IMG/VR virus record: IMGVR_UViG_3300044487_000013 | Span: 1-64,000 of that record | Direction: 5' to 3' (one strand) | DNA: 64,000 bases | Source of the DNA: a virus | Part shown: piece after piece, positions 15,525 to 58,615 of the stretch | Layout of the letters: each line of letters starts with the position of its first letter | Numbering within the stretch: the stretch's first letter is position 1 | Notes under the pieces: model-generated | What the model saw: the letters and a program-made list of their open reading frames with translations, nothing else | Database searches by the model: none | What the model was told of the DNA's origin: nothing | Position numbers and translations under genes: made by a program

Positions 15525-18023
15525 TTATCGCGCACCGAACTGCTGGTGCATTTTGAGCGTTCGCATGATCTCATCCGCGACCTGCCGGGCAACGTCCGCG
15601 GCAGTCCCGTTGATATGGTTCGTGATCTGAATCCCACCGCCACCGGGACCAGCGACTCCGGTGTTCCCGATAGGCGTGATGATCTCCTTACCATGGAGCA
15701 TTGCCAGGGTGCCCGACCCGAAGTCTCCCGACCCGCCGTTGGCGAAGGACGGAATGGGGCCGCCGGAACCGCCGTTCTTGAATCCAGCGTACAGGTCGAT
15801 AATGCCCTGCTCGATCATCTGCTGGAGCGTCATACCCTTTTTCGCCATTGCCATCAGCTGCTGGTCGCTCGCGCCGACGTAGGCTGAAGGGTTCATCTCG
15901 TGGAACTTCTTCACGCCCTCGGCAGTCGTCAGGTCATAGCTCATCGACCCGCCGCTCAGCTGCCGTGCCTCGTATTCCTTCAGCGTCAGCACCTCGCCCG
16001 CCAGGGTCCGAACCTTTTCGGTGTCCTTGTCGATCGAGAACCCGACCTCGCCCCAGGTGTCGCGCATCATCTTCAGATGCTCGATCTCTTCCCTGGCCGC
16101 CTCGATATCAGCCTGCTTGTACTGATCCCGGTGGGCAATCATACGGTCGAAGGTCTCTTGAGCCTGCTCCAGCTGCTGCTCCAGATGCGCCTTCGAGCGG
16201 GTATCCTTGGCTACCTCGGCGTCCTCGTAATTCTTCTCGTCAGCCTTGTAGAGCGCCCACACGTCGTCGTAGTACTTCTCTTCCACGACGCCAGCATCGG
16301 ACAACTTCTGCACGAGCGCTTCGTACTTCGCCTCTTCCTTGATCTTGAACTTCTGCAGGTCGGTGGCGCCGATGGCCGCCTGCTCCTGGTACATTGCGTT
16401 CCAGGCTGCGCTCAGAGCGTCGACCGCCTTGATCTGCTCCTCGCTCGCCTTCTTCATCTGGTTGACAGCGTCGATCTCAGCCTTCGTCAGGTTCGGGAAG
16501 GCCGCGGCCAGCTTGTCGACCGCAACGCCAGCGTCCAGGTAGTACTTAATCGTCGCAATCTGCTCCGGCTCCATACCGGCCAGCGTATCCTTGTAGGTCG
16601 ATCCGGTGATCGACAGGTCCCGCCAGGCCTCGTTGTACGCCTTCAACTCGCTGGTCGACAGACGCAGGTTGTTCCCGAGGTGAGCCTCGGCGTTCGCGTG
16701 GCCCTCGGTGGCGTCGCCGGCATCGTGATGCTGCTTCGCGTTTTCCGCGGTCGCGTCCGTGTTCTGATCGATCGAGGCCTTGGCGTCGACCATCTTCAGG
16801 CGGATGGCTTCAATCTGGTCCTTGACCTTGCCGGTGGCAACTGCCCAGTCTTCCTCTGCCTGCTTGTCCTTGGCAATCGAGGCAGCCCGCTCCATCATGC
16901 GCTGTTCGAGGTTGGCAAGTTCGTCATCGATCCGCTTGACGTCCTCGGTGGCGCCGGGGATATGAAGGATCTCCAGGAACTCAGCAACCGCCTTCGACGC
17001 CAGCTTGAACGCCAGGATATCGCCGTCGATGATCTGCGCGATATCCTTAAACACGACCTTCGCCGCGTTCCATTCGACGCCCACGACGCCGACCGAGTCG
17101 ACCACCACCTCCGCGAAGCTGAGGGCCTCGATGGTCGCGTCATCGATCGCGTTCGCGACCGTGCGGACGGCCTTTTCCTGCGATCCACCGAACGCCTCGG
17201 AGATGGCATCGCGGATGCCGTCAAAGCCCGCGATGATGACCGGGGAGGTGGCGACAGTCTTGGCCAGTTCCTCTTTGAAATTGGCCCAGACAGTCTGTGC
17301 CTGGGCTACCTTTTCGTCCAGGCCGTCCGTCTGATCACCGATACGCTCGATCGCTGCGCCCACCTTTTCGAGGATGGCGACGCGAGCGGACTCCAGCTTC
17401 TCGTCCGCGGTCAGGCGATCGGAGGTCGTACTCAACTTGTCCGCATACCGCTCTTCGGCCGCGGCCAGGTCGATCTTGCCGAACTGCAGAGCGATAGCGC
17501 GGGTCCGACCCGTCAGCATCGCATCGTTCATCGTATCGAGGGCCTGCTTGACGTCGACGCCAGTCGCCTGCGCGAGTGCGAACGCACCCTTCGATAGTGT
17601 CTTGAACTGTTCGTCAGTGAGGTTCATGCCGGCGGCCAGGTCCTGGTTCGCCAGCTTCATGATCTGGAAGTCGTTGATCGTGTTGTGCGTGCCCTCGCGG
17701 ACCGCATCCAGGAGGGTTTCGCCCAAGCGGCCGGCTGCCTCAGTGAGGTGGTCGAAGTTACCCTCGACGTCTGCGATGACCGCGCCCTCGATCGTCAGTT
17801 CCTTGAACGTCTCGACCGCGAGTTCGGCAACCTTCTTGATGCCCTCAAGAGCAGCCTCGGCCGTGAAGAACCCTGCGGCCGACTCTGCGACGTGATGGCC
17901 GAACCCGCCAAACTTCTCGTCCAAGGCATCGATCTTGTGCCCGAGGATCTCCAGGACACCGGACATGTCATCACGGAGTTCGACCCTCCCAGACAGTGAT
18001 CCAATGTCGAGACCTTCGGCCAT
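15525..18023 (-). CDS. tail tape measure protein (832 aa)
   Basis: Long alpha-helical, Ala/Glu/Lys-rich protein. Gly-rich C-terminus. Follows the G/GT chaperone genes. Confidence 0.85.
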   Translation of the reverse strand: MAEGLDIGSLSGRVELRDDMSGVLEILGHKIDALDEKFGGFGHHVAESAAGFFTAEAALEGIKKVAELAVETFKELTIEGAVIADVEGNFDHLTEAAGRLGETLLDAVREGTHNTINDFQIMKLANQDLAAGMNLTDEQFKTLSKGAFALAQATGVDVKQALDTMNDAMLTGRTRAIALQFGKIDLAAAEERYADKLSTTSDRLTADEKLESARVAILEKVGAAIERIGDQTDGLDEKVAQAQTVWANFKEELAKTVATSPVIIAGFDGIRDAISEAFGGSQEKAVRTVANAIDDATIEALSFAEVVVDSVGVVGVEWNAAKVVFKDIAQIIDGDILAFKLASKAVAEFLEILHIPGATEDVKRIDDELANLEQRMMERAASIAKDKQAEEDWAVATGKVKDQIEAIRLKMVDAKASIDQNTDATAENAKQHHDAGDATEGHANAEAHLGNNLRLSTSELKAYNEAWRDLSITGSTYKDTLAGMEPEQIATIKYYLDAGVAVDKLAAAFPNLTKAEIDAVNQMKKASEEQIKAVDALSAAWNAMYQEQAAIGATDLQKFKIKEEAKYEALVQKLSDAGVVEEKYYDDVWALYKADEKNYEDAEVAKDTRSKAHLEQQLEQAQETFDRMIAHRDQYKQADIEAAREEIEHLKMMRDTWGEVGFSIDKDTEKVRTLAGEVLTLKEYEARQLSGGSMSYDLTTAEGVKKFHEMNPSAYVGASDQQLMAMAKKGMTLQQMIEQGIIDLYAGFKNGGSGGPIPSFANGGSGDFGSGTLAMLHGKEIITPIGNTGVAGPGGGGIQITNHINGTAADVARQVADEIMRTLKMHQQFGAR

Positions 18024-18826: not shown

Positions 18827-19270
18827 CTACTGTGCCGATGGTCGCTTGATAGCAATGACGTTGAACGTGTACCGCTGATAGCCCTTGTCATCGACGCCCG
18901 CGTCGATGGGTTCTGACTGCTGGTGATGTATCGCCTGGTAGAAGCCTGAATTGATGAACTCGTTCCGGATGCCGTCGACCGCATTGTAAGCAGCCCAGGC
19001 CGCGTCGAGCGCCGGCCCGGAGTTCTTCGCCCGCGAGATGATGACAGCGGACGGCCGCTCGTACGCGCGGGTCTTGACGGCCGTCACATTGCCGTCTGCC
19101 GTCCGGGTCGTGTTCGTGTACTCTGGCGAGGTGCCGCCGGTGCTGATGATCGAGATCACCGCGCCGGAGGCGAGCGCCGGAAGGGTCGCCTTGGACGACG
19201 TCGTCAGGTCCTCCCCGAGGGAAGCGACACCAGCGTCGGTCAGCAACGTGACGAGATCATCGATCCACAT
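18827..19270 (-). CDS. tail completion/terminator-like or small tail tube protein
   Basis: The N-terminal region resembles DUF3168-type tail terminator proteins. Sits just before the chaperone genes. 147 aa. Confidence 0.4.
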   Translation of the reverse strand: MWIDDLVTLLTDAGVASLGEDLTTSSKATLPALASGAVISIISTGGTSPEYTNTTRTADGNVTAVKTRAYERPSAVIISRAKNSGPALDAAWAAYNAVDGIRNEFINSGFYQAIHHQQSEPIDAGVDDKGYQRYTFNVIAIKRPSAQ

Positions 19271-19273
19271 AAG

Positions 19274-19630
19274 CTATCCCATGAGCGCACGGTTCAAGTC
19301 GATCCGCTTACCCACCCGCACGGCCATCGAGGACCGGCTCTCGCGGATGACCGACTCCAGGTACTTCCACTGCCCGACCTTGTGAAACGCGTCCGGGTCC
19401 TCATGCACGAAGATGGCGTAGGGTGCCGCGGGGCCGCCCGCCACGATCAGCGTGTAAATGATCCGGCCCTCCCGGATCGGACCCACCACGTGGATGGACC
19501 CGCGCAACGGACCGTACTTCACCGGGGTCCGTCGCTTGACCTCCGTTGCCTCGACCTGCGTCTCCTGGTAGAGGGCGCGCGCTATCTCATCCGGGAAGCG
19601 CTGAGCCAGTCGCTTCAGCTTTTCCCGCAT
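19274..19630 (-). CDS. HK97 gp10-like head-tail joining protein
   Basis: RTPVKYGPLRGSIHV-type motif. Start chosen at the internal Met with an AAGGG SD. The upstream ORF extension looks artefactual. Confidence 0.5.
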   Translation of the reverse strand: MREKLKRLAQRFPDEIARALYQETQVEATEVKRRTPVKYGPLRGSIHVVGPIREGRIIYTLIVAGGPAAPYAIFVHEDPDAFHKVGQWKYLESVIRESRSSMAVRVGKRIDLNRALMG

Positions 19631-20825
19631 CGCCTGGGCGCCCTTCAGGTTGGCTGCTGGACTCGACACGTCGTAGTCTCCACGCCTTGTCGACCTCCTC
19701 GGTAAACCGGAGGCCGATATTTTCCCACCTGAATTGAGGCTGATGAGCGAGTGCGAGGCCTGCCGCAGCGTGCCGTTCACGCCAGGCACCGTCATAGTAC
19801 ATCGTTTCCAGTGAAGCAATAAAGTCCTTTTTGTCGGGGACACCACCGATCACGTTCACACCACCGAACGTCACCCCGTGGCTGGTGCATGGCACCAGGC
19901 GGGCCGCCGGCCTGGCCCAGTCCCCGAGGGCTGACCAGTCGGGAACGACCTGCGGGATGCCGCACGCCATGCCCTCCAGCGTTGTCAGGCCCCAGCCCTC
20001 GCCCTGGGTGGTGGAGATCTGGACGTCTGCCGCCTGGTAGGTCAGGACCAGTTCCTCTTCGGTGTAGCCCTCGTAGACGCCCGGCTGCTCCAGGAGCACC
20101 TTGCCACGCAGACCGTAATAACGCGTCAGCTGCTCGCAATCGACGCCCACGTCTCCGGTGGGGCACACGTGCAAGTAGAGGTACGCGTTGTCGAGCTTGT
20201 TCTTGTGAACGAACTCAGCGAAGTACTCGAAGGTCAGGTCGATGCGCTTCCGCGGCTGGTTGCGGTTCGTGTTCATCACGATAAACCCGCTGTGGCATGG
20301 TGCCGGAAGGCCGATCGTCTTGCGCGCAGCCAGCCGGTCGCCCGGCTTGTAGATCTCCAGGTCGACGCCCAGGCCGACGACACCAGCGGGCTTGAAGAAG
20401 CCGCCGGCCCGCGCCTCGTACTCCGCAAACCCCGTCCAGAAGATGGCGTAGTCCAGGTCCTGGATGTAACTGGCCCGGAGGTTCTTACCGTCGACCGCGA
20501 TGGCGCCCACCACGACTGGCTGTTGCTTGAGGGCGCGGATCTTCTCCATGTACCGCGGCACGTTCCAGGGGTCGTTCTGGATGACGATCAGGTCCGGGCG
20601 CTCCTTGGCGTAGATCTCCAGGAGCGTCTTGTCGCCCATGAGGCTGCCGCCAGGCACGTAGGCCGGGTAGATTTTGTACGGGTACTCGTGCGGGTATCCG
20701 CGGTAGTTGATCCCGAGGACGACGACGTCCCAAGTGCGCCGGAGCACTTCCAGCGTCTTGTGCGTCGCACGCGCGAACCCGCTGTCGCAACCAGCGTCGC
20801 CAATCCAGAGCAGCTTGCGCTTCAT
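19587..20825 (-). CDS. GT4-family (GT-B fold) glycosyltransferase
   Basis: EX7E motif EGWGLTTLE...GMACGIPQV. Start MKRKLLWIG with ATGA overlap. Confidence 0.75.
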   Translation of the reverse strand: MKRKLLWIGDAGCDSGFARATHKTLEVLRRTWDVVVLGINYRGYPHEYPYKIYPAYVPGGSLMGDKTLLEIYAKERPDLIVIQNDPWNVPRYMEKIRALKQQPVVVGAIAVDGKNLRASYIQDLDYAIFWTGFAEYEARAGGFFKPAGVVGLGVDLEIYKPGDRLAARKTIGLPAPCHSGFIVMNTNRNQPRKRIDLTFEYFAEFVHKNKLDNAYLYLHVCPTGDVGVDCEQLTRYYGLRGKVLLEQPGVYEGYTEEELVLTYQAADVQISTTQGEGWGLTTLEGMACGIPQVVPDWSALGDWARPAARLVPCTSHGVTFGGVNVIGGVPDKKDFIASLETMYYDGAWRERHAAAGLALAHQPQFRWENIGLRFTEEVDKAWRLRRVESSSQPEGRPGDAGKAEATGSALPG

Positions 20826-21631
20826 CGGTACCTCCGCTCGTAGATCCACTGCCGCCCAGGAAATGGGAACTCGAAGAACTTGTTCTGGATGTTCGACTGC
20901 CGACCGATATGCTGCACGAACGAGGGCACGCTGGCCGCGAAGCATCGCGCGCCGATCTCCTTGCCCCATATCTGGAGGAGCAGGTCGTGGCCCCGCTGCC
21001 GGTGCTGTTCGCGGCCATCATCGAGGAAAGGGTCCGGTCCCAGCCAATCAGCCAGCTGCTGCGCGACCTGCCGACGCCAGACCAGGCATTGCGCGCCGTA
21101 GAAACCGTACACCGGATGCGGGGCGACAGCCTCACCCTTCGCGAGCATCGCGCGCACGCGCGGGAAGGACTCGCCGTGCCGGATCACCGACTCGTCCTCG
21201 GCGCGGTAATGGGAGTCGCTGACCTTCTCGAAGGTGGCCGCCAGCGTGAACATTGGCACGGCCGCGTGGCCGTGGTCGGACAACCACGCCTCAACGCTCT
21301 CCAGGAACGTGTCGAGGAAGTCGAGATCGTCTTCCAGCTTCATCACGTAGTCCGCGTTCGTGTCGCTGCCCAGGCGGATGGCCCGCGCCGCGTTCTGCTG
21401 CCGGGTGCAAGGCTCGGCCTCGCAGATGATCTCCTCACCAAGCGGAATGTACTTCTCAGCTTCGATGAGGAAGTCGTCGTCCTTGGTGCCGCCGCAGGAG
21501 ATCTGCAGCGAGTGCAGGTAGGGCGATGACCAGAAGTCCGTGCGGGCCAGGTTCTCCAGCGTCCGCGCCAGGTAGTTCTCTCCGCCGGTCAGTCGGCGGT
21601 CGTGGGTCTCGATGACGACAGCAATTTTCAC
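20822..21631 (-). CDS. GT-A-fold glycosyltransferase (DXD motif)
   Basis: N-terminal MKIAVVIETHD strand. DXD-like EDDLDF. Confidence 0.5.
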   Translation of the reverse strand: MKIAVVIETHDRRLTGGENYLARTLENLARTDFWSSPYLHSLQISCGGTKDDDFLIEAEKYIPLGEEIICEAEPCTRQQNAARAIRLGSDTNADYVMKLEDDLDFLDTFLESVEAWLSDHGHAAVPMFTLAATFEKVSDSHYRAEDESVIRHGESFPRVRAMLAKGEAVAPHPVYGFYGAQCLVWRRQVAQQLADWLGPDPFLDDGREQHRQRGHDLLLQIWGKEIGARCFAASVPSFVQHIGRQSNIQNKFFEFPFPGRQWIYERRYR

Positions 21632-22170
21632 AGCATGGCCTCCAGCTTGCGGATGATCTCAGCCCGGTCGTGGTAGTGCCGCGGATTATCGCGGCTGATG
21701 GCCCGCGGCCGTTCCAACTGCTCGATCGGCATCACCACACTGTTGTGCGGCGCCTCCTGGTAGCGGTACGCCAGGTGCGTGAAGATGCGATCGATCTCGA
21801 TCGGGTCCAGGTCGCCGTACCAATCGTGCCACGGCTGGAAGTCGATGAGGCGCTTCGGAAAGAAGCATCCCCACCCGATCAGCGTGACGCGATTGCCGCA
21901 GAGTTCGTTGTAGATCCGGAGGTGACCGTGCGTGATGGCGTTCGTGACCCGCTCGTCATAGTGCCGCCACAGGCGTCGAATGTCAATCTGCGCGTCGTCA
22001 TCCTGGACGTAGATGATCTCGTTCCGCGCCTGCTTCGCCAGGTCAAACCGCGGCAGCAGGTTCGGACTCTCCGTTTGGACAAGCACATCATCGAACGGAA
22101 AGTTCATCTCGATATCCGCCGGCCACTCCTTCTCGCGAGTCACCAGGACGGCCGTCACCTTGTCGGTCAT
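21628..22170 (-). CDS. small GT-A-like glycosyltransferase
   Basis: VTAVLVTRE strand and QDDD acidic motif. ATGA overlaps on both sides. Confidence 0.35.
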   Translation of the reverse strand: MTDKVTAVLVTREKEWPADIEMNFPFDDVLVQTESPNLLPRFDLAKQARNEIIYVQDDDAQIDIRRLWRHYDERVTNAITHGHLRIYNELCGNRVTLIGWGCFFPKRLIDFQPWHDWYGDLDPIEIDRIFTHLAYRYQEAPHNSVVMPIEQLERPRAISRDNPRHYHDRAEIIRKLEAML

Positions 22171-22934
22171 CCCAGGATCTCCCGGAAGTAGGCAGCGTGC
22201 TCCGACGCCCAGTCCTCGTACGTTCGATGGTTGGTCAGGTAGAACAGGACCTGACGGAGGCTGTCCCAGCTGCCCTTCTCGTACTCAATGACCGGGCGCA
22301 CGATGGCGAAACCGATCCTCGGGCTGATCACCGGCTTGCCGGCGGCCATCGCCTCAATGATTGGTGTGCATCCACCTTCGAGCGATGACGTCACCAAGTA
22401 GTAGTCGATGCCCTGGTAGAACGCAGGCAGGTCCCCGTAGCGACTGCTGACGATCGGGCAGGGCCATCCGGTACCCCACGCGCGCACGTCGTAGCCGGCC
22501 TCCAGCATCTTCTTCACCAGGGCCTCCCCCTTCCGAGGGTTACCCGGCTTGACGCTGCCTGCCACCCCGAATACCGGCCGGCGCTTCGGCAGGAAGATAT
22601 CGTCCACGGCCTGCTCGATGATGCGCGGGTTCGGGGCGCCGAGGCTCAGCATCAGGTCGCGCATGGCCGGGTTCAGGACAACGTGGCCGTCGTACTTCGC
22701 TGCGAACTGCCGCGGCCGGCCATCGTCGTGCGCGAAGAGGCCGATCGCCTTGCGGCCACGGCCGCTCGGTGGGAAGTAGACGTTCGAATGGTACTCGACG
22801 TCGCACCTCCGCTCGAAGGCGTTGATGCGCGCGTCGAACCCGTACCGCGGCAGCCGGTCGACCAGTTCCTTGGCGAGCCGGCCGACGATCCAGTTCATGT
22901 CCGGCCCGGTGACCGGGATGTTGACGGTCACCAT
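22167..22934 (-). CDS. GT4-like glycosyltransferase (compact)
   Basis: EX7E motif EGGCTPIIEAMAAGKPVIS. Confidence 0.55.
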   Translation of the reverse strand: MVTVNIPVTGPDMNWIVGRLAKELVDRLPRYGFDARINAFERRCDVEYHSNVYFPPSGRGRKAIGLFAHDDGRPRQFAAKYDGHVVLNPAMRDLMLSLGAPNPRIIEQAVDDIFLPKRRPVFGVAGSVKPGNPRKGEALVKKMLEAGYDVRAWGTGWPCPIVSSRYGDLPAFYQGIDYYLVTSSLEGGCTPIIEAMAAGKPVISPRIGFAIVRPVIEYEKGSWDSLRQVLFYLTNHRTYEDWASEHAAYFREILG

Positions 22935-23488
22935 ATGCCTATGCCGCCCCAGTGGTGGCCTCCACTGATCTCAAGCCACGTGCCCGGAACGGTTTCGACC
23001 TTGATCTCGTTCCAGAACTGCGGCACCCCAGTCTGCTTCGCGTCGATATCATGCGTAGCCGTGATGGCATCCGGGGTGAGGAACCAACGGTACGCATCCC
23101 AGTCTTCCCGCTTGCCCTTGTAGGAGTCGTCGCCATCGAGGAACAGCAGGTCGGCCCGGCGGCCTGCGAGGGCCACGGCCACGAGTCCCTGCGTCTCCAG
23201 AGCGTGCGAGTCTCCGAGGATGCAGCGGATCCGGCCGCCGAACTCCTTCTCCAGGATCTTGTTGCGAACCTGGCAGGCAGCGAGGCTCAGCCCGGTCGCG
23301 TCGCCGGAGGCCGGCATGTCGACGGTCACCAGGAACGCATCGGGGAACAGCCGTCCGAGGTGCTGGATGAACCCGCCGGGGCCGGTACCGATCTCCAGGA
23401 TCGTCTGCGGGTCGCAGGCCGCCTTCAGGTAGCGGTCGAACTCCGCCACCTCCTCCGGCCACTGCAGCATCTTCAGGTCGTGAGGCAT
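22928..23488 (-). CDS. class I SAM-dependent methyltransferase
   Basis: Motif I ILEIGTGPGGF. Start at the Met with a GAGG SD (MPHDLKM). Confidence 0.7.
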   Translation of the reverse strand: MPHDLKMLQWPEEVAEFDRYLKAACDPQTILEIGTGPGGFIQHLGRLFPDAFLVTVDMPASGDATGLSLAACQVRNKILEKEFGGRIRCILGDSHALETQGLVAVALAGRRADLLFLDGDDSYKGKREDWDAYRWFLTPDAITATHDIDAKQTGVPQFWNEIKVETVPGTWLEISGGHHWGGIGIW

Positions 23489-24525
23489 AGGACCTCGTCG
23501 CAAATGAAGTGAGCGTCGTCCTCAGTGAGGCCGGGGTGCGTCGGCAGGCTGAAGCCGCGCGTACCGATCTCGGTGGCAGTCGGGAACTCCCCGCTGTTGA
23601 ACTCCGGCATGGTGTGCAGCGGGACGAAGGTCGGCCGCGTCTCGATGCCGCGGCTGCCCAGGGCGCCCATCACCATATCCCGGTTGACATGCCGCGGCAC
23701 CAGGGCCGTGAACAACCAGGGCGATACACGCGCGCCCGCGCGTGGGTGCTGGCGCGAGAGGTGGAAGAGGCGCCGCTTGTAGACCGCGATGACCTTCTCG
23801 CGGGCCGCCCACATCTCGTCCAGACGCGCCAGCTGCGCGACCCCGAGGGCCGCCTGCAGGTCAGTCATCCGGTAATTGAAGCCGAGTTCCGTATGGTAAT
23901 AGCGGCGCACCGGATGCTGGGCCATGCCCCGCAGCGACCGCAGCCGCATCGCGTACTTCGGATTGTTCGTCACCACCGCTCCGCCCTCGCCAGTCGTGAT
24001 CAGCTTGTTGCCGTAGAAGCTGAAGCAGGACATGTCGCCCAGGCAGATGGGCTGGCTGTAGAGCGCCTCGGCGGCATCCTCGATAATCGCCACGCGGTCG
24101 TTAAGGCCAGTGAAGTCGTCGGTCGGCACGCCGTAGAGATGCACCGGGATGATGGCGCGCGTGCGCCGCGTGATGGTTCGCTTCGTTGCGTCTATATCGA
24201 GGCCCCACGTGTCCGGATTGACGTCGACCAGAACGGGGCGGGCGCCGGTATACATCACCGCGTAGGCCGTCGCCACGTAGGTCAGGTCGGGCACGATCAC
24301 CTCGTCGCCAGGGCCGACGCCGAGGGCGGCGAGCGCCAGGTGCAAGGCCGTCGTCCCGCTGGACGTCGCGACCGCGAACTTCTGCTCGTGCGTGTACGCG
24401 AGGATCTTCTCGAACCGCTCGACCATCGGGCCGCTCGTGATCTGCCCGCTGTTGAAGACGTCGAGGAGAAGTTTTCGTTCGTAGGAGGAAAGATCTGGCC
24501 GGCTAACCTGGTACTTGTACGTCAT
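23473..24525 (-). CDS. DegT/DnrJ/EryC1/StrS-family PLP-dependent sugar aminotransferase
   Basis: SFYGNK PLP-lysine motif. Overall family pattern (ArnB/WecE/PglE-like). Confidence 0.9.
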   Translation of the reverse strand: MTYKYQVSRPDLSSYERKLLLDVFNSGQITSGPMVERFEKILAYTHEQKFAVATSSGTTALHLALAALGVGPGDEVIVPDLTYVATAYAVMYTGARPVLVDVNPDTWGLDIDATKRTITRRTRAIIPVHLYGVPTDDFTGLNDRVAIIEDAAEALYSQPICLGDMSCFSFYGNKLITTGEGGAVVTNNPKYAMRLRSLRGMAQHPVRRYYHTELGFNYRMTDLQAALGVAQLARLDEMWAAREKVIAVYKRRLFHLSRQHPRAGARVSPWLFTALVPRHVNRDMVMGALGSRGIETRPTFVPLHTMPEFNSGEFPTATEIGTRGFSLPTHPGLTEDDAHFICDEVLCLTT

Positions 24526-24787
24526 GCAAACATCCAGTCATCTCAACGTTCTGATCCCACACGTACTCGTTCCGTTCGAAGTCGTAGCGGGCGGTCGCCC
24601 GCAGGACCAACCATCCGAGGCCGGCCACTTCCATGAGGGCCGTCGTCTGATGGCAGGAGTCACTGTTCGTGTCGGTCACCGTGAACTGCCCGGTCGAGCG
24701 GCGGGCGTGATATGGGATCCAGTCGACCGGCTTCCGCTCTTGATGGCGCTTCAGCAGGTTCTCATCTCGCTCGTCGTAGAGCGCCAT
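24503..24787 (-). CDS. hypothetical protein (head completion region)
   Basis: 94 aa. Overlaps the aminotransferase start by 23 nt. Confidence 0.4.
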   Translation of the reverse strand: MALYDERDENLLKRHQERKPVDWIPYHARRSTGQFTVTDTNSDSCHQTTALMEVAGLGWLVLRATARYDFERNEYVWDQNVEMTGCLHDVQVPG

Positions 24788-24788
24788 G

Positions 24789-25205
24789 TTACTGGCCTCG
24801 CACCACCGACCCGAGGATCGTGTCCGTCACGAACGGAAGGTTCGTGCCCGAGTCCGCGAAGCCACCAGCCTGCACAACCGGGGCCGTGCCGCCACCCGGG
24901 AGAACGATCGAATCACGCAGATCGAGCGGACCTTGCCGGATGAACCCAGTGTTCGGCGTAGTGGTCGGTATGGCATCTAGAAAGGTCAGTACGGCGAACG
25001 TCATCACGAGTACGCCCTGGCTCGTATAACGCTGCCGTTGGCTCAGGTCCACGAGGGCGCGCAGCGTTTGCGGGCTGCCGAAGACGTCGTTCCCCTGGCC
25101 GTCGTCGCCAATCCAGGGCGTATGCACGACGTCCAGCTTCATCGACTCGAATTGCGGCGAGGCAATGTTCGCGATGGCGTCGCGGATGAGTGACTCGTAA
25201 CCCAT
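24789..25205 (-). CDS. head-tail adaptor-like protein
   Basis: Position after the gp6-like connector. 138 aa. Confidence 0.4.
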   Translation of the reverse strand: MGYESLIRDAIANIASPQFESMKLDVVHTPWIGDDGQGNDVFGSPQTLRALVDLSQRQRYTSQGVLVMTFAVLTFLDAIPTTTPNTGFIRQGPLDLRDSIVLPGGGTAPVVQAGGFADSGTNLPFVTDTILGSVVRGQ

Positions 25206-25214
25206 GACTCGCTC

Positions 25215-25832
25215 CTAATTGCAATCGTCGCTACCGAAGGACTCGAAGACGATCGGCAGCGTCGCCATGTTCTGGTTGAACCAGGACGCGACCAAGAGGC
25301 GCCGCACCTCATCGGGTACGACGTTCGACACGTAGTTCAGGTCCGACTGCTTGCGCCGGATCTCGACGTCGACGGCCTCGGTCGGCATGTTGCTGCTCGC
25401 CTGATGGCCCTTCACGTCCGAGAACGTGAGCGCCACCGACCCGGCCTTCAGGCTGGTGATGCCCTTGTCGAGCGGGTCGTTGTTCCCCAGGCGATCGGAC
25501 GCGCCCAGCTGCAGGGCGAACTCGCATTGAGCGTCCTTGAGGGCCTGCGGGATGGACGTGACGCCAGACGTCGGGATGGCAAAGCCGTTCCGGTTGACCA
25601 TGCCGACCCGCGGCCAGGTCAGGTTCTGCGTAGCGTCGACGGCCGCGCCGGTCCAATCGAAGCACGCCTCCATGCTGCGGCAGGCCGCGCGTAGCGCCGC
25701 TTCCTTGCGCGCGTCAATGGCCGTGGCGAACCAGGACACCGCCGGCAGCCGGTTGGCCGCGTACGTTTCGAACTCCGCGAGCGTCGCGAACGTATCCGCG
25801 GTTGCTGAGCCAGGCGTAGCAGTGAGACTCAT
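25215..25832 (-). CDS. head-tail connector protein (HK97 gp6-like)
   Basis: The N-terminal AEFETYAANRLPAVSW ... AALRAACRSMEACFDWTG segment resembles gp6 connectors. Directly after the capsid gene. Confidence 0.5.
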   Translation of the reverse strand: MSLTATPGSATADTFATLAEFETYAANRLPAVSWFATAIDARKEAALRAACRSMEACFDWTGAAVDATQNLTWPRVGMVNRNGFAIPTSGVTSIPQALKDAQCEFALQLGASDRLGNNDPLDKGITSLKAGSVALTFSDVKGHQASSNMPTEAVDVEIRRKQSDLNYVSNVVPDEVRRLLVASWFNQNMATLPIVFESFGSDDCN

Positions 25833-25930
25833 GGCAGGGTCCTCAAAAAGAAAACGCGGTAGGCAAGGATTATACCCTGCCTACCGCGTGGATGGTACCC
25901 GTCGATGACCTACCTACCGCCGCGTGGGAA

Positions 25931-26995
25931 CTAGCCGTTGAGGTGGCAGATCCCGCTCTTCCCCGAGGCCGTCGCGCGGATCAGCGGAGCGCCGATCGAG
26001 AAGACCTTGAAGTTGAGCTTGAACCCGCCGGCCTCGTCCCACTGCACGTTCTGGATCTGCTCGCCCTGGATCCAGGCCGCGACGTCGGGCGACGCCTGCA
26101 TGACGATCAGGTTGCCCGAGGGCAGCTGGTCGGCCACGCCAATCCGCTGCACACTCGACACCTGCGAGATGCGCCCACGGATCGACTGGATGTTCGCGGT
26201 CGCCGCGTTGTAATCGTTGTCGATGATCACACCCGCGTCGGTCGGCATGTACACCCAGTAGGGTCCGAAGAACTTGTTCGCCTGGAGCGCCGTGATGGCC
26301 GCGAGCAGGTCCTTCAGGTACGAAGAGCCGGCCTTCGTGCTGTCACCCCAGTCCTTGCCGCCGTCGAACGACACGGTCGTGACGCGGTTCGGATGCGTGG
26401 TGTAGCCGTAGATCGGCAGGCCGCCGAAGGTCGGTCCACCCTGGAACAGCATCTTCTCCAGCTGCTCGCTGACGACGCGCGCCGCGGTCTGAGCCTGGAT
26501 GGTGTCCAGGGTCTCGCCGCTCAGCCGCGCCGCGGCCAGCTTCCGGAGGTTGATGAAGTAGTCCTTGTGGGTGATCGGCAAGGGCAGCTGGTTCAGGTTG
26601 AACTCCTGAACGTCGTTGTCCGTCTGGCCGAGGCCGTCGAGCGACGTGATGGCCGCGTCCATGTCGGTCACCTGCTCGTAGCCGAACACCGTCTTCGCGA
26701 GGGCATTCGGAACGTTGCGGGTGAAGCCGGCCGAGATCAGGTCCTTGACGCCGACGAGGCGCATGACCGTCTCGCGGACCACCGCGTCATCGAAGTACTT
26801 CCACTCTTCGTGACGCAGCGTGTCGAGCGTGCGGAGGGCCGCGGTCGTCAGACCCTTGCCTTCCGTCATCGCCTTGTACAGCTGCTGGGTCGCCCAACGA
26901 CCGCTGTTCCCGTTGAACAACACGGTCGGGCTGGTGATGATGCTGGAAGCCGCGGGCGCCGATGCCACGCGACCCCGAGAAGTACGCTTCGCCAT
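25931..26995 (-). CDS. major capsid protein
   Basis: 354 aa. Downstream of the decoration-like and protease-scaffold genes. Lambda E-like order. Confidence 0.7.
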   Translation of the reverse strand: MAKRTSRGRVASAPAASSIITSPTVLFNGNSGRWATQQLYKAMTEGKGLTTAALRTLDTLRHEEWKYFDDAVVRETVMRLVGVKDLISAGFTRNVPNALAKTVFGYEQVTDMDAAITSLDGLGQTDNDVQEFNLNQLPLPITHKDYFINLRKLAAARLSGETLDTIQAQTAARVVSEQLEKMLFQGGPTFGGLPIYGYTTHPNRVTTVSFDGGKDWGDSTKAGSSYLKDLLAAITALQANKFFGPYWVYMPTDAGVIIDNDYNAATANIQSIRGRISQVSSVQRIGVADQLPSGNLIVMQASPDVAAWIQGEQIQNVQWDEAGGFKLNFKVFSIGAPLIRATASGKSGICHLNG

Positions 26996-27576: not shown

Positions 27577-28008
27577 CTACGGCAGGAACACCTGCCCGCC
27601 GCTCGGTCGGATGCTCACGCTTGCTTCCTGCACACCGTCGGTCGGCTGCTTCGGAGCAATGTTCACGACGAAGCCCGAGAAGATCCACGTCGCGCCGTCC
27701 GGGAACAGCAGGTCGTAGCGATCCTTCGAGCCGGATGCCCAGGCGTCGAGCAGACCCGTCGTCGCGTCGTGGGTCGCCTCGCCCGAGGGCAGAAAGTTGA
27801 GCATGAACTGAAGCTCACCCTTCCGGCGGATACCGACAACGTACGAGTCGTCGTCGGAATTTTGCGTGCTCGTGTCGATCGGCTTGCGGGTCAGAGCCGG
27901 CGGAGTAATGTCCTTCAACTCCGCGATGGCCGTGCCGTTCCGCTTGACGATCGTTCCGTGCGCCGAGATCCCGTTGCTCTCAGCGCCGGTGTTCGTCACA
28001 GGACTCAT
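27577..28008 (-). CDS. virion hypothetical protein
   Basis: 143 aa, beta-rich. Sits between the protease-scaffold and decoration genes. Confidence 0.4.
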   Translation of the reverse strand: MSPVTNTGAESNGISAHGTIVKRNGTAIAELKDITPPALTRKPIDTSTQNSDDDSYVVGIRRKGELQFMLNFLPSGEATHDATTGLLDAWASGSKDRYDLLFPDGATWIFSGFVVNIAPKQPTDGVQEASVSIRPSGGQVFLP

Positions 28009-43375: not shown

Positions 43376-44830
43376 TCACTGGGGCATCGTTTGGATCACT
43401 GAATTGGTCAGCCCGTTGCTTGGAGATCCGTTGGCCGCGGTCGTGTAGTTGTCGACCACCACTACCCTGCTGAACGCGTAGCCACTTTCGAACGACCAGT
43501 AGCTGTAATGACCGACGTACGGCTGGGATAAGAACTCCACTCGGTTTCGCAGTACGTCGATTGACGAAAGGTTTCCTTGCAGGCTGATCGCGGCGGAGTA
43601 ATTCAAAGCGTCAGTCGACAGGTTAGAGCCGGCATCCACGATCCGGTTATCGCGCATCGACACTCTGGACGCGGAGTACCTGGCGTCGAGAATGCCGACT
43701 GCGATGCCTCTCACCGGGGCCTGCACGATCTCGTTGCCGACGATCAGTGCGCCCGAAATGTTGCCCAGGCATTGCAGGCCGATGCCGTAGTTGGCTGAGC
43801 CGGTGATGGTGCGCGCTGAGGCCTCCCGCTCGAAGCGGATGACGTTGTCGGAGATCCGCAGGTTCGTGAATTCCCCGTTGATGCCTGGAGTGTGCGACGT
43901 GGCGATGCCCCATGCACTGGGAGTCTGTCGGGTGACCTGGGCAACCGAGATAGAGTTTCCAGAGATTGTCACCAGATCCATAGCCGTCGTGGACCAGAGC
44001 GAGATGCCGTAGATGGTGTTCCGAACGTGGTTGCCTGTCACAGATGATGACTTCAGGTTCACGAGGTTCATCCCGCCTCGGAAGCCGTCGATAGTGTTGC
44101 CTGCGATCGAACCCGATCCGCTATGCACTTCGATCGCAGTCCAGGCCGCGTCGGCGGCTGACGATACGAAGGTGTTGTCGGTAATGTGGAAGTTGTCGCC
44201 ATCGATGTAAATCGAGCTATTGTCAAACTCCGGCTGTGCCGCGCGCTTCTCGAACACGAAATGGTTGCGCTCAACGTAGACACCTGATACCGCCGGCCCG
44301 TTCACGTCGAGCGGATCGGCACCGCTGACATGAAGCCTCATGTTCTCGAAATGCAGGTTCGTGCCCGCCCAGATCTCCCACACGAGTTGCTCGGTTCGCA
44401 CGTCGCTGACGTTGATCACGGCGCTCGTGTTGCCTGCCGCGTTTTGATCGATGGTAATTCCGGAGAACGTGAGATTATTCACCGCCGAGGTCTGCGGGGT
44501 GGCCGCGAAAATGTGGCGGTAATTTCCTGCGTCTGCCTTCACCTTGAACGCGCCGGGTCCACTGACCGCTAGATTGCTGCAGATTGGAATGGTGCTGGCT
44601 GCTGGGTTGATGATGTAGGTGCCTGCCGGGACATAGATGGTTCCACCACCTGAGGCGCAGACGGTCGAAAACGCACCCACGACAGCAGCCGTATCGTCAA
44701 TCGTTCCGGTGCCTGTGGCGCCATATTCGCGGATGCTGAGCGGTCGGATGGAAACGGCGGACGCAGGGACCAGCATCGCGAGAAGAAAAGACGTCACGAG
44801 ACTAGTGTGGATCCGGGTCTTATTCTCCAT
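43376..44830 (-). CDS. secreted right-handed beta-helix protein (pectate-lyase/tailspike-like, probable polysaccharide depolymerase)
   Basis: Signal peptide. YGATGTGTIDDTAAVVGAF NxxD-type repeats. Parallel beta-helix repeats. Confidence 0.65.
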   Translation of the reverse strand: MENKTRIHTSLVTSFLLAMLVPASAVSIRPLSIREYGATGTGTIDDTAAVVGAFSTVCASGGGTIYVPAGTYIINPAASTIPICSNLAVSGPGAFKVKADAGNYRHIFAATPQTSAVNNLTFSGITIDQNAAGNTSAVINVSDVRTEQLVWEIWAGTNLHFENMRLHVSGADPLDVNGPAVSGVYVERNHFVFEKRAAQPEFDNSSIYIDGDNFHITDNTFVSSAADAAWTAIEVHSGSGSIAGNTIDGFRGGMNLVNLKSSSVTGNHVRNTIYGISLWSTTAMDLVTISGNSISVAQVTRQTPSAWGIATSHTPGINGEFTNLRISDNVIRFEREASARTITGSANYGIGLQCLGNISGALIVGNEIVQAPVRGIAVGILDARYSASRVSMRDNRIVDAGSNLSTDALNYSAAISLQGNLSSIDVLRNRVEFLSQPYVGHYSYWSFESGYAFSRVVVVDNYTTAANGSPSNGLTNSVIQTMPQ

Positions 44831-55015: not shown

Positions 55016-55621
55016 TTAGGTGATCGACTGAAATTCGCGGGTACGGACCTGGAACCCCGTAAGGTCCTTTCCGGCCAGCTTGTTTTCCGCCGCGTAGTCG
55101 ACCAGCGTCGACTCCTTCGCCGCCTGAGCGTTCTTCGCGACGACCAGCTTCGCGGCCTGCGCGATGCCATAGATCTCGCCCTGCTCGTTCACGTACACGA
55201 CGATCGTTTCGAAGACCTTCATACCATCCTCCAGTGTGAGAAGTAGTTCGTCCACGTTGCATCGGCACATAGGGTGCCACGGTAGGTCGTTCATCTGCGC
55301 GAGGTAGAGCGCCGCGTCCTGCTTCGCACGTTCCTCTGCGGCCAGGTCCCGCTGCGGTTCCATTGGCCGCATGATGATCTCGTAGAGTCGACGGTCAGTC
55401 AGGTCCGCGCACAAGGGTGCCTTCACCTCCAGGACCAGGCCATAGTGGCCGCCGATGGTATCCGGCTCGCCCGCGAAGAAGGCCGCCTTCGCTCGCTCGA
55501 ACTCGTCCTCGTACTGCGTCACGTAGGTGACTACCTGACGCCTGCGAGCGTACTGCGCCTGCTCCAGAGCGTCGTAGTACCGCTCGGCATCCTCGTGGCT
55601 CATGTACGAGTTATTTGGCAT
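55016..55621 (-). CDS. hypothetical protein (N-terminal part of a possible split gene)
   Basis: Start MPNNSYMSHEDAERYY. 201 aa. Confidence 0.5.
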   Translation of the reverse strand: MPNNSYMSHEDAERYYDALEQAQYARRRQVVTYVTQYEDEFERAKAAFFAGEPDTIGGHYGLVLEVKAPLCADLTDRRLYEIIMRPMEPQRDLAAEERAKQDAALYLAQMNDLPWHPMCRCNVDELLLTLEDGMKVFETIVVYVNEQGEIYGIAQAAKLVVAKNAQAAKESTLVDYAAENKLAGKDLTGFQVRTREFQSIT

Positions 55622-58273: not shown

Positions 58274-58282
58274 AAAGGGTAT

Positions 58283-58615
58283 TGGAGACGGTGGGAGTCG
58301 AACCCACGTCCGAACGAATGTTCCCGCGTCCATCTACGTGCATAGCCCGGTGCCGCCGGGCACGGTCTTGAACGACGCTGCGGTTTTCTTACTTGCCCGT
58401 CCCTGATCCGCAGCCAAACAGGATCGTGGGCCATAGCCGATTAATGACGTGGATGACGGCTTATCGGCATCAGCCGGTCCACGGACGGCTGCCTTAAGCA
58501 GCCATCGGGAGTGCAACAGGTTCCGCAATTAAGGGATCTGCCAGCGGATTAACGAGTCACTGGTGCTCGGCACGCAGACCCGGTTCAACGCGCTCGTCGA
58601 AGCCGTGTCGTCCCC
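58283..58615 (-). ncRNA. ssrA: tmRNA (ssrA), complete
   Basis: 5' GGGGACGACACGGCUUCGACG pairs with 3' ...GGACGUGGGUUCGACUCCCACCGUCUCCA, giving a G3-U wobble acceptor. Internal ORF ends GCUGCUUAA. Confidence 0.7.

Follow-up and report, generated by a model that had tools for sequence, protein, structure and literature searches.

A putative virion glycosylation locus with one conserved glycosyltransferase in the neck module of an uncultured siphovirus and its relatives

What do six genes for sugar-processing enzymes do among the neck and tail genes of a phage, and which molecule do they modify? This question is raised by the window analyzed here, a stretch of 64,000 nucleotides (IMG/VR record IMGVR_UViG_3300044487_000013, positions 1 to 64,000) from an uncultured siphovirus of about 66 kb. 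Six co-oriented and mutually overlapping genes, which a first-pass annotation made from the sequence had described as a glycosylation cluster, were all found on the minus strand at 19587-24525, with the head-tail adaptor (Ad1) side upstream and the gp10-like, tail-terminator and tape-measure side downstream. The genes and the surrounding features, in the order of transcription, are as follows.

27577..28008, minus strand: tail tube protein, context and candidate acceptor (PF16461 Phage_TTP_12), encoded upstream of the capsid gene
25931..26995, minus strand: major capsid protein, context and candidate acceptor (phrog_771, E 4.9e-19; PF19774; Linocin_M18)
25854..25889, minus strand: strong terminator-like hairpin separating the capsid and Ad1 genes (15-bp stem, then a T-run)
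25215..25832, minus strand: head-tail adaptor Ad1, upstream boundary (phrog_477, E 1.3e-27; PF20557)
24503..25205, minus strand: two small neck-region genes, 138 aa and 94 aa, abutting the cassette upstream
23473..24525, minus strand: ORF1, 350 aa, PLP-dependent nucleotide-sugar 4-aminotransferase, perosamine-synthase-like (PF01041 DegT, E 4.7e-97)
22928..23503, minus strand: ORF2, 186-191 aa, class I SAM-dependent methyltransferase (Methyltransf_24, 31.1 bits; cut-off 26.3)
22167..22934, minus strand: ORF3, 255 aa, short GT-B-type protein (Glycos_transf_1, 33.5 bits, residues 166-208 only)
21628..22170, minus strand: ORF4, 180 aa, compact GT-A glycosyltransferase, GT64 (EXTL2)-like fold, invariant DDD
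20822..21631, minus strand: ORF5, 269 aa, GT-A glycosyltransferase, GT13 (GnT-I / POMGnT1)-like fold, invariant EDD..D
19587..20825, minus strand: ORF6, 412 aa, full-length GT4 (GT-B), B736L-like anchor enzyme (phrog_2170, E 1.2e-33, full length)
19274..19630, minus strand: HK97 gp10-like tail-completion / Neck1 protein, downstream boundary (phrog_5, E 7.4e-9; PF04883 weak)
18827..19270, minus strand: tail terminator, context (PF12691 weak), with a homologue in every related lineage

The cassette ORFs are genuine genes, since their GC3 (0.81-0.88) equals that of the adjoining genes, independent assemblies contain proteins identical to theirs, and their catalytic motifs are unchanged across 29-65 homologues. 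The coupling by overlaps noticed earlier takes the form of ATGA at ORF3/4 and ORF5/6 and of GTGA at ORF4/5, while the overlaps are longer elsewhere: ORF2 and ORF3 have 7 nt in common, ORF1 and ORF2 16-31 nt, ORF1 and the upstream 94-aa gene 23 nt, and ORF6 and the gp10-like gene 44 nt. Profile matches of the neighboring genes bore out the proposed position between head-tail connector genes and gp10-like and tail genes, and chaperones and the tape measure are encoded further downstream of the tail terminator. The 138-aa neck gene has 30-63% identity in relatives, and no homologue of the 94-aa gene was found in the related loci examined. The major capsid protein shows 36% identity to that of Brevundimonas phage StAshley, and the tail tube protein 35-47% identity to the gene at the canonical post-terminator position in L026, L031, L033, L038 and L039. 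No promoter-like or terminator-like site was found on the cassette's own strand at its borders. The hairpin at 25854..25889 probably marks the start of a lower-expressed transcription unit of neck, glycosylation and tail genes, and the cassette is predicted to be co-transcribed with the neck and tail genes.

The first-pass annotation had described the cluster as embedded, implying an insertion, and had proposed a search of related phages for the same position. Related lineages were sampled in three ways, namely by capsid homology, by ORF5 homology and by GT4 homology, and a GT4 homologous to ORF6 (41-58% identity) was found at the Ad1–gp10 locus in all 13 lineages spanning the interval. The gp10-like gene lies directly 3' of this GT4 in the window and in 11 of the 13, while in L004 and L009 an FkbM methyltransferase and a GT-A-like gene separate the two. 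One lineage (L015) has the GT4 alone, without accessory genes, and the accessory genes found elsewhere include a GT11 fucosyltransferase, FkbM and other methyltransferases, a hexapeptide acyltransferase, a sulfotransferase, an NTP-transferase, a B12-radical-SAM enzyme and GT2. Among the relatives the capsid protein shows identities of 29% to 66%, while that of the GT4 holds at 41-58%, and divergence of the GT4 does not track that of any structural protein (|r| <=0.36, n = 10-13). Instead of an insertion, the comparison points to a locus of ancestral origin in which one GT4 is fixed and the tailoring genes can be exchanged; its recurrence across the clade, which is a new result, indicates that it is no one-off insertion. 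Because tailoring genes are swapped between related phages and the anchor GT4 is kept, the locus behaves as a hypervariable island for the glycan type, similar to those for O-antigen or flagellin glycosylation. A Vicinamibacterales MAG has megabase contigs that contain distant relatives. The host, for which there is a hint of Acidobacteriota, is probably no actinobacterium.

When each ORF was compared with protein families and solved structures, all six earlier assignments to a family or fold held. ORF1 is the DegT-family PLP sugar aminotransferase that had been recognized, and its best solved relative is the Caulobacter GDP-perosamine synthase 3BN1 (E 1e-81, 47% identity over 334 residues), the Schiff-base lysine being conserved in FYGNK (aa 170-174). 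The LegC and PseC models of NCBIfam ranked highest, with LegC, PseC and ArnB scores all below the cut-offs. GDP-4-keto-6-deoxymannose is the substrate of GDP-perosamine synthase and would be that of ORF1. Since this type of substrate requires a dehydratase and the phage is without one, a host nucleotide-sugar is presumably used; in agreement with the earlier remark, neither a dehydratase nor an epimerase turned up in the cluster or in tests of the larger ORFs across the rest of the window. The level of identity to GDP-perosamine synthase supports the proposal that a host nucleotide-sugar is turned into an amino and methylated sugar. ORF2 could start at the TTG at 23503 or at the ATG at 23488, and its assignment as a class I SAM methyltransferase was upheld by the Methyltransf_24 score above the cut-off and the SAM motif EIGTGPGG (aa 32-39); its homologue in L029 also matches RMNT_CmcI weakly. 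Because L031 has a homologous methyltransferase without any aminotransferase, ORF2 is probably a sugar O-methyltransferase rather than an N-methyltransferase.

Two GT4 proteins with EX7E motifs had been called. For ORF6 the call stands over the full length: Glycos_transf_1 and Glyco_trans_1_4 exceed their cut-offs, EX7E occupies aa 276-284, and the family profile aligns end-to-end with chlorovirus NY-2A B736L (3OY2) at E 4.3e-33 (next match 3e-11), taking in the RNxxRKRxD and EX7E regions. The mechanical frame of ORF6 extends to 20969, and the start at 20825 is backed by the ATGA coupling and the homologue alignment. For ORF3, a protein of only 255 aa with homologues in L029 (68% identity) and L021, the call concerns the C-terminal half, where the GT4 donor-binding region (EX7E, aa 186-194) is the sole recognizable part; only residues 168-208 aligned to the core GT4 profile (hhalign), and no solved relative was found by sequence search. 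ORF4 and ORF5 gave no match in Pfam, PHROG or NCBIfam, and yet both are GT-A folds with high confidence, in accordance with the two GT-A-like (DXD) calls made before. None of the six proteins has a membrane segment (maximum of the 19-residue Kyte-Doolittle mean <=1.39).

Between the two functions offered by the first-pass annotation, we favor virion glycosylation over lysogenic serotype conversion, because the locus is core to the whole clade, is co-transcribed with neck and tail genes by prediction, and no integrase was found among the larger ORFs tested. With a probability of roughly 0.55, the cassette serves to glycosylate virion proteins in the cytoplasm late in infection, as in cluster O mycobacteriophages. 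The host would supply GDP-mannose and, by its 4,6-dehydratase, GDP-4-keto-6-deoxymannose, which ORF1, judging from its 47% identity and conserved lysine, may transaminate to a GDP-perosamine-type 4-amino-4,6-dideoxyhexose. ORF6, as the sole invariant gene of the locus in the clade, may form the lineage-independent linkage to the acceptor or the first sugar, the chain could be extended by ORF3 (GT4-type donor domain), ORF4 (GT64-like, retaining-type) and ORF5 (GT13-like, inverting-type, EDD), and ORF2 would add a methyl group to a sugar, probably on oxygen. Analogy and the conserved position suggest that the acceptor is most likely at least one virion structural protein, encoded in the same operon and made simultaneously, and a putative lineage-specific sugar chain would most likely coat the phage's own particle. 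The window's aminotransferase and the GT11 fucosyltransferase represent the two main alternative accessory sets, and the sugars of both enzymes derive from GDP-4-keto-6-deoxymannose. Together with an anchor whose homologue binds GDP-mannose, this would make the locus chemically coherent, which speaks for the proposed pathway. The Ser/Thr-rich C-terminal extension that is reported to be the glycosylation site in mycobacteriophages (PMC12619734) is absent from the capsid protein and the tail tube protein.

The strongest competitor, which we regard as improbable though worth weighing, is that the enzymes remodel the LPS O-antigen, capsule/EPS or S-layer glycan of the host during lytic infection, acting on lipid-linked intermediates at the cytoplasmic membrane face, so that the receptor is destroyed or masked and progeny are spared loss on debris or superinfection is blocked. 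O-polysaccharide clusters typically hold a perosamine synthase, GT4, GT-A and a methyltransferase, the content to which homology assigns the cassette, and its variability resembles O-antigen locus diversity. The solubility of the six proteins is compatible with a lipid-linked acceptor, since Und-PP-linked O-antigen units, too, are assembled by soluble GT4 and GT-A enzymes on the membrane's inner face, and peripheral O-antigen glycosyltransferases likewise are without membrane segments. However, the cassette has no gene for an initiating phosphoglycosyltransferase, a flippase, a polymerase, an ABC exporter or a ligase, late expression allows little time for export, and the absence of a promoter or terminator of its own also argues against this function. 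Host-surface functions in phages are usually encoded by morons at variable sites, and it is hard to reconcile such a function with strict linkage to neck genes in 13 lineages, with capsid identity down to 29% and the GT4-only version included.

A less probable target is a non-virion protein, either a host protein or the phage's own secreted protein with 29% Ser/Thr (30401-31654), which would be glycosylated in the cytoplasm before export as in HMW1C or Aah-type adhesin glycosylation. Glycosylation ahead of Sec export is an established mechanism, and this protein with its signal peptide and Ser/Thr-rich repeats is encoded in the same late region; but it is missing from L029, the closest cassette-sharing relative, and from other lineages keeping the GT4, and therefore cannot be the acceptor that is conserved. 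Hypermodification of phage DNA, in which glycosylated hydroxymethylated bases shield it against restriction, is very unlikely. Phage GT-B enzymes including T4 alpha-glucosyltransferase resemble B736L by HHpred (PMC6024577), and there is a report of DNA hypermodification by multiple glycosyltransferases (Pyle et al., 2024, as cited in PMC12619734), but the weak matches to PF20706 'GT4-conflict' score under the cut-off and are restricted to the generic EX7E region. The phage encodes an N6/N4 DNA methylase instead, the cassette lies in the neck module away from replication genes, and tests of the larger ORFs in the window, which covers all but about 2 kb of the genome, revealed neither a thymidylate-synthase-type hydroxymethylase nor any other gene for base hypermodification. 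Least credible is a serotype-conversion cassette expressed from a prophage, which is largely refuted: although the distant relatives in the megabase contigs mean that some members of the wider group may integrate, no integrase, repressor or other lysogeny gene was found among the larger ORFs tested in the window, a capsid search of 185,579 genomes gave no close prophage relatives, and the cassette lies amid the genes of the late operon, overlaps at its junctions, and has neither a promoter of its own nor Gtr- or Oac-type membrane proteins.

Among known systems, the GtrABC/Oac lysogenic modules are likewise phage-encoded sugar-modifying enzymes, but those are integral membrane proteins which temperate phages encode near the attachment site and express from the prophage, and none of these features holds for the present cassette. 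ORF1 keeps the PLP lysine and the surrounding motif of GDP-perosamine synthase (Per/RfbE; Caulobacter crescentus, PDB 3BN1/3DR4), whereas cellular Per/RfbE is found in O-antigen clusters with a GDP-mannose dehydratase and an N-acetyltransferase, neither of which is in the phage cassette; unlike the window, the relatives L021, L017 and L014 pair the aminotransferase with a hexapeptide acyltransferase. In cyanosiphovirus S-CBS4, gp014-016 comprise a GT4 homologue (31.6% identity over 92% of the query) adjoining a galactosyltransferase and a SAM methyltransferase in the structural region, but at a portal-to-protease position, without an aminotransferase and with functions known from annotation alone. 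The closest solved homologue of the anchor GT4 is chlorovirus B736L (NY-2A; PDB 3OY2/3OY7; PBCV-1 orthologue A546L), a soluble, virus-encoded GT-B enzyme which binds GDP-mannose (PMC9614988) and whose virus itself carries out the cytoplasmic glycosylation of its capsid protein. It is from a eukaryotic giant virus, and the match is no proof of a capsid acceptor, because the acceptor and true donor of B736L are not established and NY-2A capsid glycans are without mannose (PMC9614988).

The nearest parallel to virion glycosylation is provided by actinobacteriophage cassettes (cluster O Corndog gp35-38; cluster F Che8; Freeman et al., 2023, Cell Host Microbe 31:1216, as cited in PMC11600133 and PMC12619734). 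In Corndog-type phages the stretch between portal and protease encodes an O-methyltransferase, two glycosyltransferases and a GlcNAc-transferase (PMC4351075), and, according to the same citing papers, the encoded enzymes modify both capsid and tail tube without being virion components themselves; for the window cassette such a modification is a prediction. Both kinds of cassette combine a methyltransferase with multiple glycosyltransferases, and both are co-oriented within the virion structural operon (PMC4351075) and expressed late. The enzyme families differ, no match to ORF6 or ORF5 being found in mycobacteriophages by tblastn, and the window cassette lies instead in the neck module from Ad1 to gp10 and adds a nucleotide-sugar aminotransferase. 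It differs from the actinophage cassettes also in that its clade keeps one GT4 as a fixed core gene while the rest of the cassette is exchanged.

The six cassette ORFs (19587-24525) are co-oriented on the minus strand and transcribed from right to left. The first-pass annotation had placed them between head-tail connector genes and gp10-like and tail genes, and profile matches of the neighbors bear out this flanking order, which is listed here in the direction of transcription together with the cassette.

25931-26995, minus strand, capsid protein
25854-25889, minus strand, terminator-like hairpin directly after the major capsid gene (15-bp stem with 10 G-C pairs, then a T-run)
25215-25832, minus strand, head-tail adaptor Ad1
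between Ad1 and the cassette, minus strand, a 138-aa gene and then a 94-aa gene
23473-24525, minus strand, ORF1, aminotransferase
22928-23503, minus strand, ORF2, methyltransferase
22167-22934, minus strand, ORF3, GT4 glycosyltransferase recognizable in part
21628-22170, minus strand, ORF4, GT-A-like protein
20822-21631, minus strand, ORF5, GT-A-like protein
19587-20825, minus strand, ORF6, GT4 glycosyltransferase (the anchor)
19274-19630, minus strand, gp10-like Neck1 gene, directly after the cassette
18827-19270, minus strand, tail terminator
between the tail terminator and the tape measure, minus strand, G/T-type chaperones
15525-18023, minus strand, tape measure

The junctions are ATGA at ORF3/4 and ORF5/6 and GTGA at ORF4/5; ORF2 and ORF3 overlap by 7 nt, and ORF1 and ORF2 by 16-31 nt, a range set by the choice of ORF2 start. 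The cassette also overlaps both of its neighbors, by 23 nt between the 94-aa gene and ORF1 and by 44 nt between ORF6 and the gp10-like gene. The mechanical ORF of ORF6 starts at 20969; the ATGA coupling and the N-termini of ten homologues support the ATG at 20825 as the start. Since GC3 of the cassette ORFs (0.81-0.88) equals that of the flanking capsid, adaptor, and tape-measure genes, the cassette is not compositionally foreign. No promoter-like or terminator-like site was seen flanking the cassette on its own strand; because the hairpin follows the capsid gene and the cassette lacks bracketing sites of its own, we regard it as part of the neck and tail transcription unit. A likely role for the hairpin itself is attenuation, by which capsid expression would be set relative to that of the neck and tail genes. 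The 94-aa gene (24503-24787, minus strand), just upstream of the aminotransferase gene, is without homologue in any related locus, and the equivalent slot in the related phage contig L004 holds a MUG113/T5orf172-type (GIY-YIG-like) protein. There are thus hints that the cassette border is a landing site for mobile elements.

The family calls made from the sequence for the six genes all hold, with the caveat that ORF3 is recognizable as a GT4 in one half only. ORF1 matched the DegT/DnrJ/EryC1/StrS family over the full domain (PF01041, 325.9 bits against a Pfam gathering cut-off of 19.8, E 4.7e-97; residues 15-345 aligned with profile positions 6-359 of 360), and its Schiff-base (PLP) lysine, aa 174 in FYGNK, aligns with the lysine of FFGNK in 3BN1. 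Its closest solved relative is the Caulobacter crescentus GDP-perosamine synthase (E 1e-81, 47% identity over 334 residues), and the next distinct solved protein follows at E 8e-65, while ORF1 stays under all NCBIfam equivalog cut-offs (LegC, 265 bits vs. 420; PseC, 237 vs. 423.5). These similarities are a strong lead, not proof, that ORF1 may be a GDP-perosamine synthase. Sugar aminotransferases are rare in sequenced phages: at E < 1e-20, 8 of 50,697 records have one, and identity never exceeds 40%.

ORF2 is a class I SAM methyltransferase with a Methyltransf_24 match and the motif EIGTGPGG; its homologue in the close relative L029 also matches the rhamnosyl-O-methyltransferase/CmcI family marginally, and comparison of ORF2 with solved structures gave nothing significant. 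N-methylation of the new amine was considered because an N-acyltransferase fills the slot after the aminotransferase in three other lineages, but it was judged less likely. Since the related locus L031 has a homologous methyltransferase without any aminotransferase, this comparison favors O-methylation as the probable activity of ORF2. In ORF3 (255 aa), the GT4 match is confined to residues 166-208, which include the EX7E motif; no solved relative was found, and profile comparison aligns the EX7E region alone.

ORF4 and ORF5 gave no match in Pfam, PHROGs, or NCBIfam. Alignments with metagenomic homologues (30 for ORF4 and 112 for ORF5) contain the invariant residues D57-D58-D59 and E100-D101-D102-D104, respectively, and AlphaFold2 models were obtained with a pLDDT of 95.6 each. 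Both proteins combine a Rossmann-like fold with a conserved acidic DXD-type metal/nucleotide-binding motif and so belong with GT-A enzymes, which gives folds to two widespread families of “hypothetical” proteins. Likeness of ORF5 to GT13 and of ORF4 to GT64 is at the fold level only, with 15-22% identity. A single-sequence pattern scan of IMG/VR with ORF5 found nothing, and tblastn of ORF5 against GenBank phages (50,697 records) gave no match.

ORF6 is a full-length GT4 enzyme (PF13692, 31.2 against a cut-off of 27; PF00534, 28.7 against 26.4) and matches the GT4 structure 3OY2 over its full length. Its EX7E motif is EGWGLTTLE (aa 276-284), and neither glutamate varies among 10 family members. 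A profile of the ten-member family matched B736L of chlorovirus NY-2A from end to end (E 4.3e-33), with the next match at 3e-11; for B736L, which binds GDP-mannose, no acceptor is known (PMC9614988). A phage core gene is hereby linked to the long-unexplained chlorovirus enzyme B736L/A546L. The ORF6-type family comprises at least 1,474 clusters at E ≤ 1e-10, many of them on contigs of 58-98 kb. Membrane segments were found in none of the six cassette proteins.

For comparison across related phages, capsid-based scans of IMG/VR gave 21 related contigs, and look-ups based on ORF5 and the GT4 added further independent lineages, including two contigs of NCBI MAG assemblies and a related element present three times in a Vicinamibacterales (Acidobacteriota) MAG. 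An ORF6-type GT4 lies within the Ad1-to-gp10 interval in all 13 lineages that span it, and directly upstream of the gp10-like gene in 11; in L004 and L009, an FkbM methyltransferase gene and a GT-A-like gene separate the two. Capsid protein identity drops from 66 to 29%, while the GT4 holds 41-58%. The genes accompanying the GT4 differ as follows.

Cassette content of related phage contigs and lineages (L numbers) besides the GT4
L015: none
L039, L040: one unknown gene (281 or 219 aa)
L031: methyltransferase, ORF5-like
L009: GT11, FkbM methyltransferase, GT-A-like 235-aa protein
L004: the L009 set and two more methyltransferases
L020: the L009 gene set and one further methyltransferase, in different order
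L021: aminotransferase (48%), hexapeptide acyltransferase, 254-aa gene, ORF3-like
L017, L014: aminotransferase then acyltransferase as in L021; contigs end inside the cassette, before any GT4
L025: NTP-transferase/methyltransferase fusion, ORF5-like
L026 (about 7 kb): methyltransferase, phosphoribosyltransferase-like, sulfotransferase, two ORF5-like, others
L038: GT2, methyltransferase, B12-binding radical-SAM enzyme, GT2, others
L029: the six genes of the window (GT4 included) and one extra 207-aa gene

Since the GT4 is fixed and the accessory genes differ among lineages, the locus is ancestral and combines a single fixed anchor enzyme with tailoring genes that are hypervariable. The B12-binding radical-SAM enzyme (L038, 4027-5625; 532 aa) is encoded beside the GT2 enzymes and the methyltransferase in this 98-kb relative and may perform C-methylation or other radical tailoring of a sugar. 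The phosphoribosyltransferase-domain and sulfotransferase-family proteins of L026 (12785-14217) suggest that its glycan decorations are sulfated or otherwise unusual. Apart from the cassette, the tail tube gene (Phage_TTP_12; 27577-28008, minus strand) lies upstream of the capsid gene and not after the tail terminator. This relocation is shared by the closer relatives L004, L009, L015, L020, L021, L025, and L029, and the gene is in the canonical position in the more distant L026, L031, L033, L038, and L039.

The exact cassette proteins recur on a 66,052-bp JGI contig and on contigs of run SRR35899596. The window also encodes replication and DNA genes (primase-polymerase/helicase, SNF2 helicase, exonuclease, DNA polymerase A, UvrD helicase, and N6/N4 DNA methylase), a portal, a MuF-like protein, a large terminase, and a lysozyme. 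Megablast of 16 kb against GenBank phages gave no nucleotide match, and the nearest cultured capsid protein is that of a Brevundimonas phage (36% identity). In prokaryotic data, only the ORF5 profile reached distant elements, in the Vicinamibacterales MAG CBDFLL01. These are three near-identical copies (L032, L033, and L034) on three megabase contigs (1.0-1.8 Mb), each with a capsid gene (29% identity), an ORF5-like gene, a GT4 (46-49%), gp10 (59-61%), a terminator, and a tail tube gene; possible explanations are several prophages, a transposable phage, or an artefact of the assembly. As distant relatives with a capsid protein just 29% identical, they give the only hint of a host for the group, namely Acidobacteriota. 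A complete tmRNA gene (58280-58615, minus strand; Rfam RF00023, 134.8 bits against a gathering score of 47, full model 1-374) has the orientation of the phage genes and lies a short way downstream of the gene for DNA polymerase A (55611-57842), and ARAGORN predicts the tag peptide AEPVALPMAA. A pectate-lyase/RHGA-type beta-helix protein of 484 aa (43376-44830, minus strand), whose gene is remote from the tail module and surrounded by small genes without known function, is likely a polysaccharide depolymerase or tailspike. A PADLOC scan for defence systems gave no relevant match.

Beyond the enzyme identities, the context, and the comparative pattern, which rest on direct observation, we infer the following sugar, order of steps, and acceptor. 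In the cytoplasm, a host dehydratase would turn host GDP-mannose into GDP-4-keto-6-deoxymannose, from which ORF1 would make a perosamine-type amino sugar; ORF6 would form a lineage-invariant linkage, ORF3, ORF4, and ORF5 would extend the chain, and ORF2 would methylate a sugar. The two main alternative accessory sets have a perosamine-synthase-like aminotransferase and a GT11 fucosyltransferase, and the sugars of both branch from GDP-4-keto-6-deoxymannose. With the GDP-mannose binding of the anchor homologue, GDP-sugars give the chemistry of the cassette a coherent theme. One or more virion proteins are the most likely acceptor. This is because the locus has kept its place beside the neck genes through deep divergence and is co-transcribed with them, because no lysogeny genes were found among the ORFs tested, and because a similar structural-operon cassette in cluster O mycobacteriophages modifies capsid and tail tube, according to Freeman et al. 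2023 as cited in PMC11600133 and PMC12619734. As to which protein, identity of the GT4 compared with that of the capsid, tail tube, Ad1, 138-aa, gp10, and terminator proteins (10-13 lineages) gave no signal of co-divergence (r from -0.36 to +0.12), and neither did a Ser/Thr-composition test; no Ser/Thr-rich C-terminal extension was found on the capsid or tail tube protein.

Remodelling of envelope glycans during lytic growth, to which we give a minor but real chance, would fit the O-antigen-like gene content of the cassette and is compatible with soluble enzymes, but the cassette has no initiating, flipping, polymerising, or export gene, and the strict linkage to the neck module would be unexplained. 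Glycosylation of a non-virion protein is improbable. The candidate acceptor is a Ser/Thr-rich protein of about 417 aa encoded at 30401-31654 (minus strand), between the MuF-like and Pa193_gp24-like head genes, and it is absent in L029 and missing from relatives that retain the GT4. This protein has a typical Sec signal peptide (MKRILAALFALSVLVAAPAKA), 29% Ser/Thr, imperfect TVTG/ASG-type repeats, and no Pfam match, and a secreted protein within a head-assembly module is odd in itself. We consider DNA glycosylation very improbable, since the larger ORFs tested in the window, which spans all but about 2 kb of the genome, gave no match to thymidylate-synthase-family or related proteins or to a hydroxymethylase, and hence no hydroxymethylated-base pathway. 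Lysogenic serotype conversion is scarcely credible, because 185,579 prokaryotic genomes scanned with a capsid profile yielded no relatives, the ORFs tested include no integrase or repressor, the cassette lies inside a late operon without its own promoter, and its enzymes have no membrane segments, whereas Gtr/Oac-type O-antigen conversion uses integral membrane enzymes of temperate phages expressed in the lysogen.

If glycosylation of virion proteins is the function, a large clade of siphoviruses of about 60-70 kb, known from metagenomes only and without cultured relative, has it as a conserved core trait; the strategy would draw on different enzyme families, arranged as a hypervariable island with a single fixed glycosyltransferase at its center. 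Phage surface glycans would then be a general, evolvable trait and not a peculiarity of actinophages, and the cassette would provide a defined, testable gene set for roles of phage glycans beyond mammalian antibodies. A more specific idea, which we hold to be doubtful, is a “glycan serotype” island, in which the fixed anchor and fast-exchanged tailoring enzymes would give structural proteins of this uncultured clade, probably infecting soil Acidobacteriota, a lineage-specific sugar coat. Because structural proteins would receive this coat in the cytoplasm during their synthesis, it could hide capsid or tail proteins from protein-recognising host immune sensors or shield them from other diversifying pressures, and could also alter surface properties of the particle outside the cell.

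To our knowledge, mycobacteriophages are the only phages whose own enzymes have been demonstrated to glycosylate virions. Corndog (cluster O) has a cassette of methyltransferase and glycosyltransferase genes in its structural operon (PMC4351075). The present cassette resembles such systems in that phage glycosyltransferases and a methyltransferase are co-transcribed with structural genes. Tblastn searches with ORF6 and ORF5 gave no mycobacteriophage match among 50,697 phage records, and mycobacteriophage Ardmore gp87 has generic GT-A fold similarity only (TM about 0.5). By analogy, the cassette probably works like actinophage virion glycosylation, while not belonging to that system by homology. 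It differs in its operon position, in the combination of a fixed anchor GT4 with an exchangeable cassette, in a step for amino-sugar synthesis by ORF1, and in a host that is probably non-actinobacterial.
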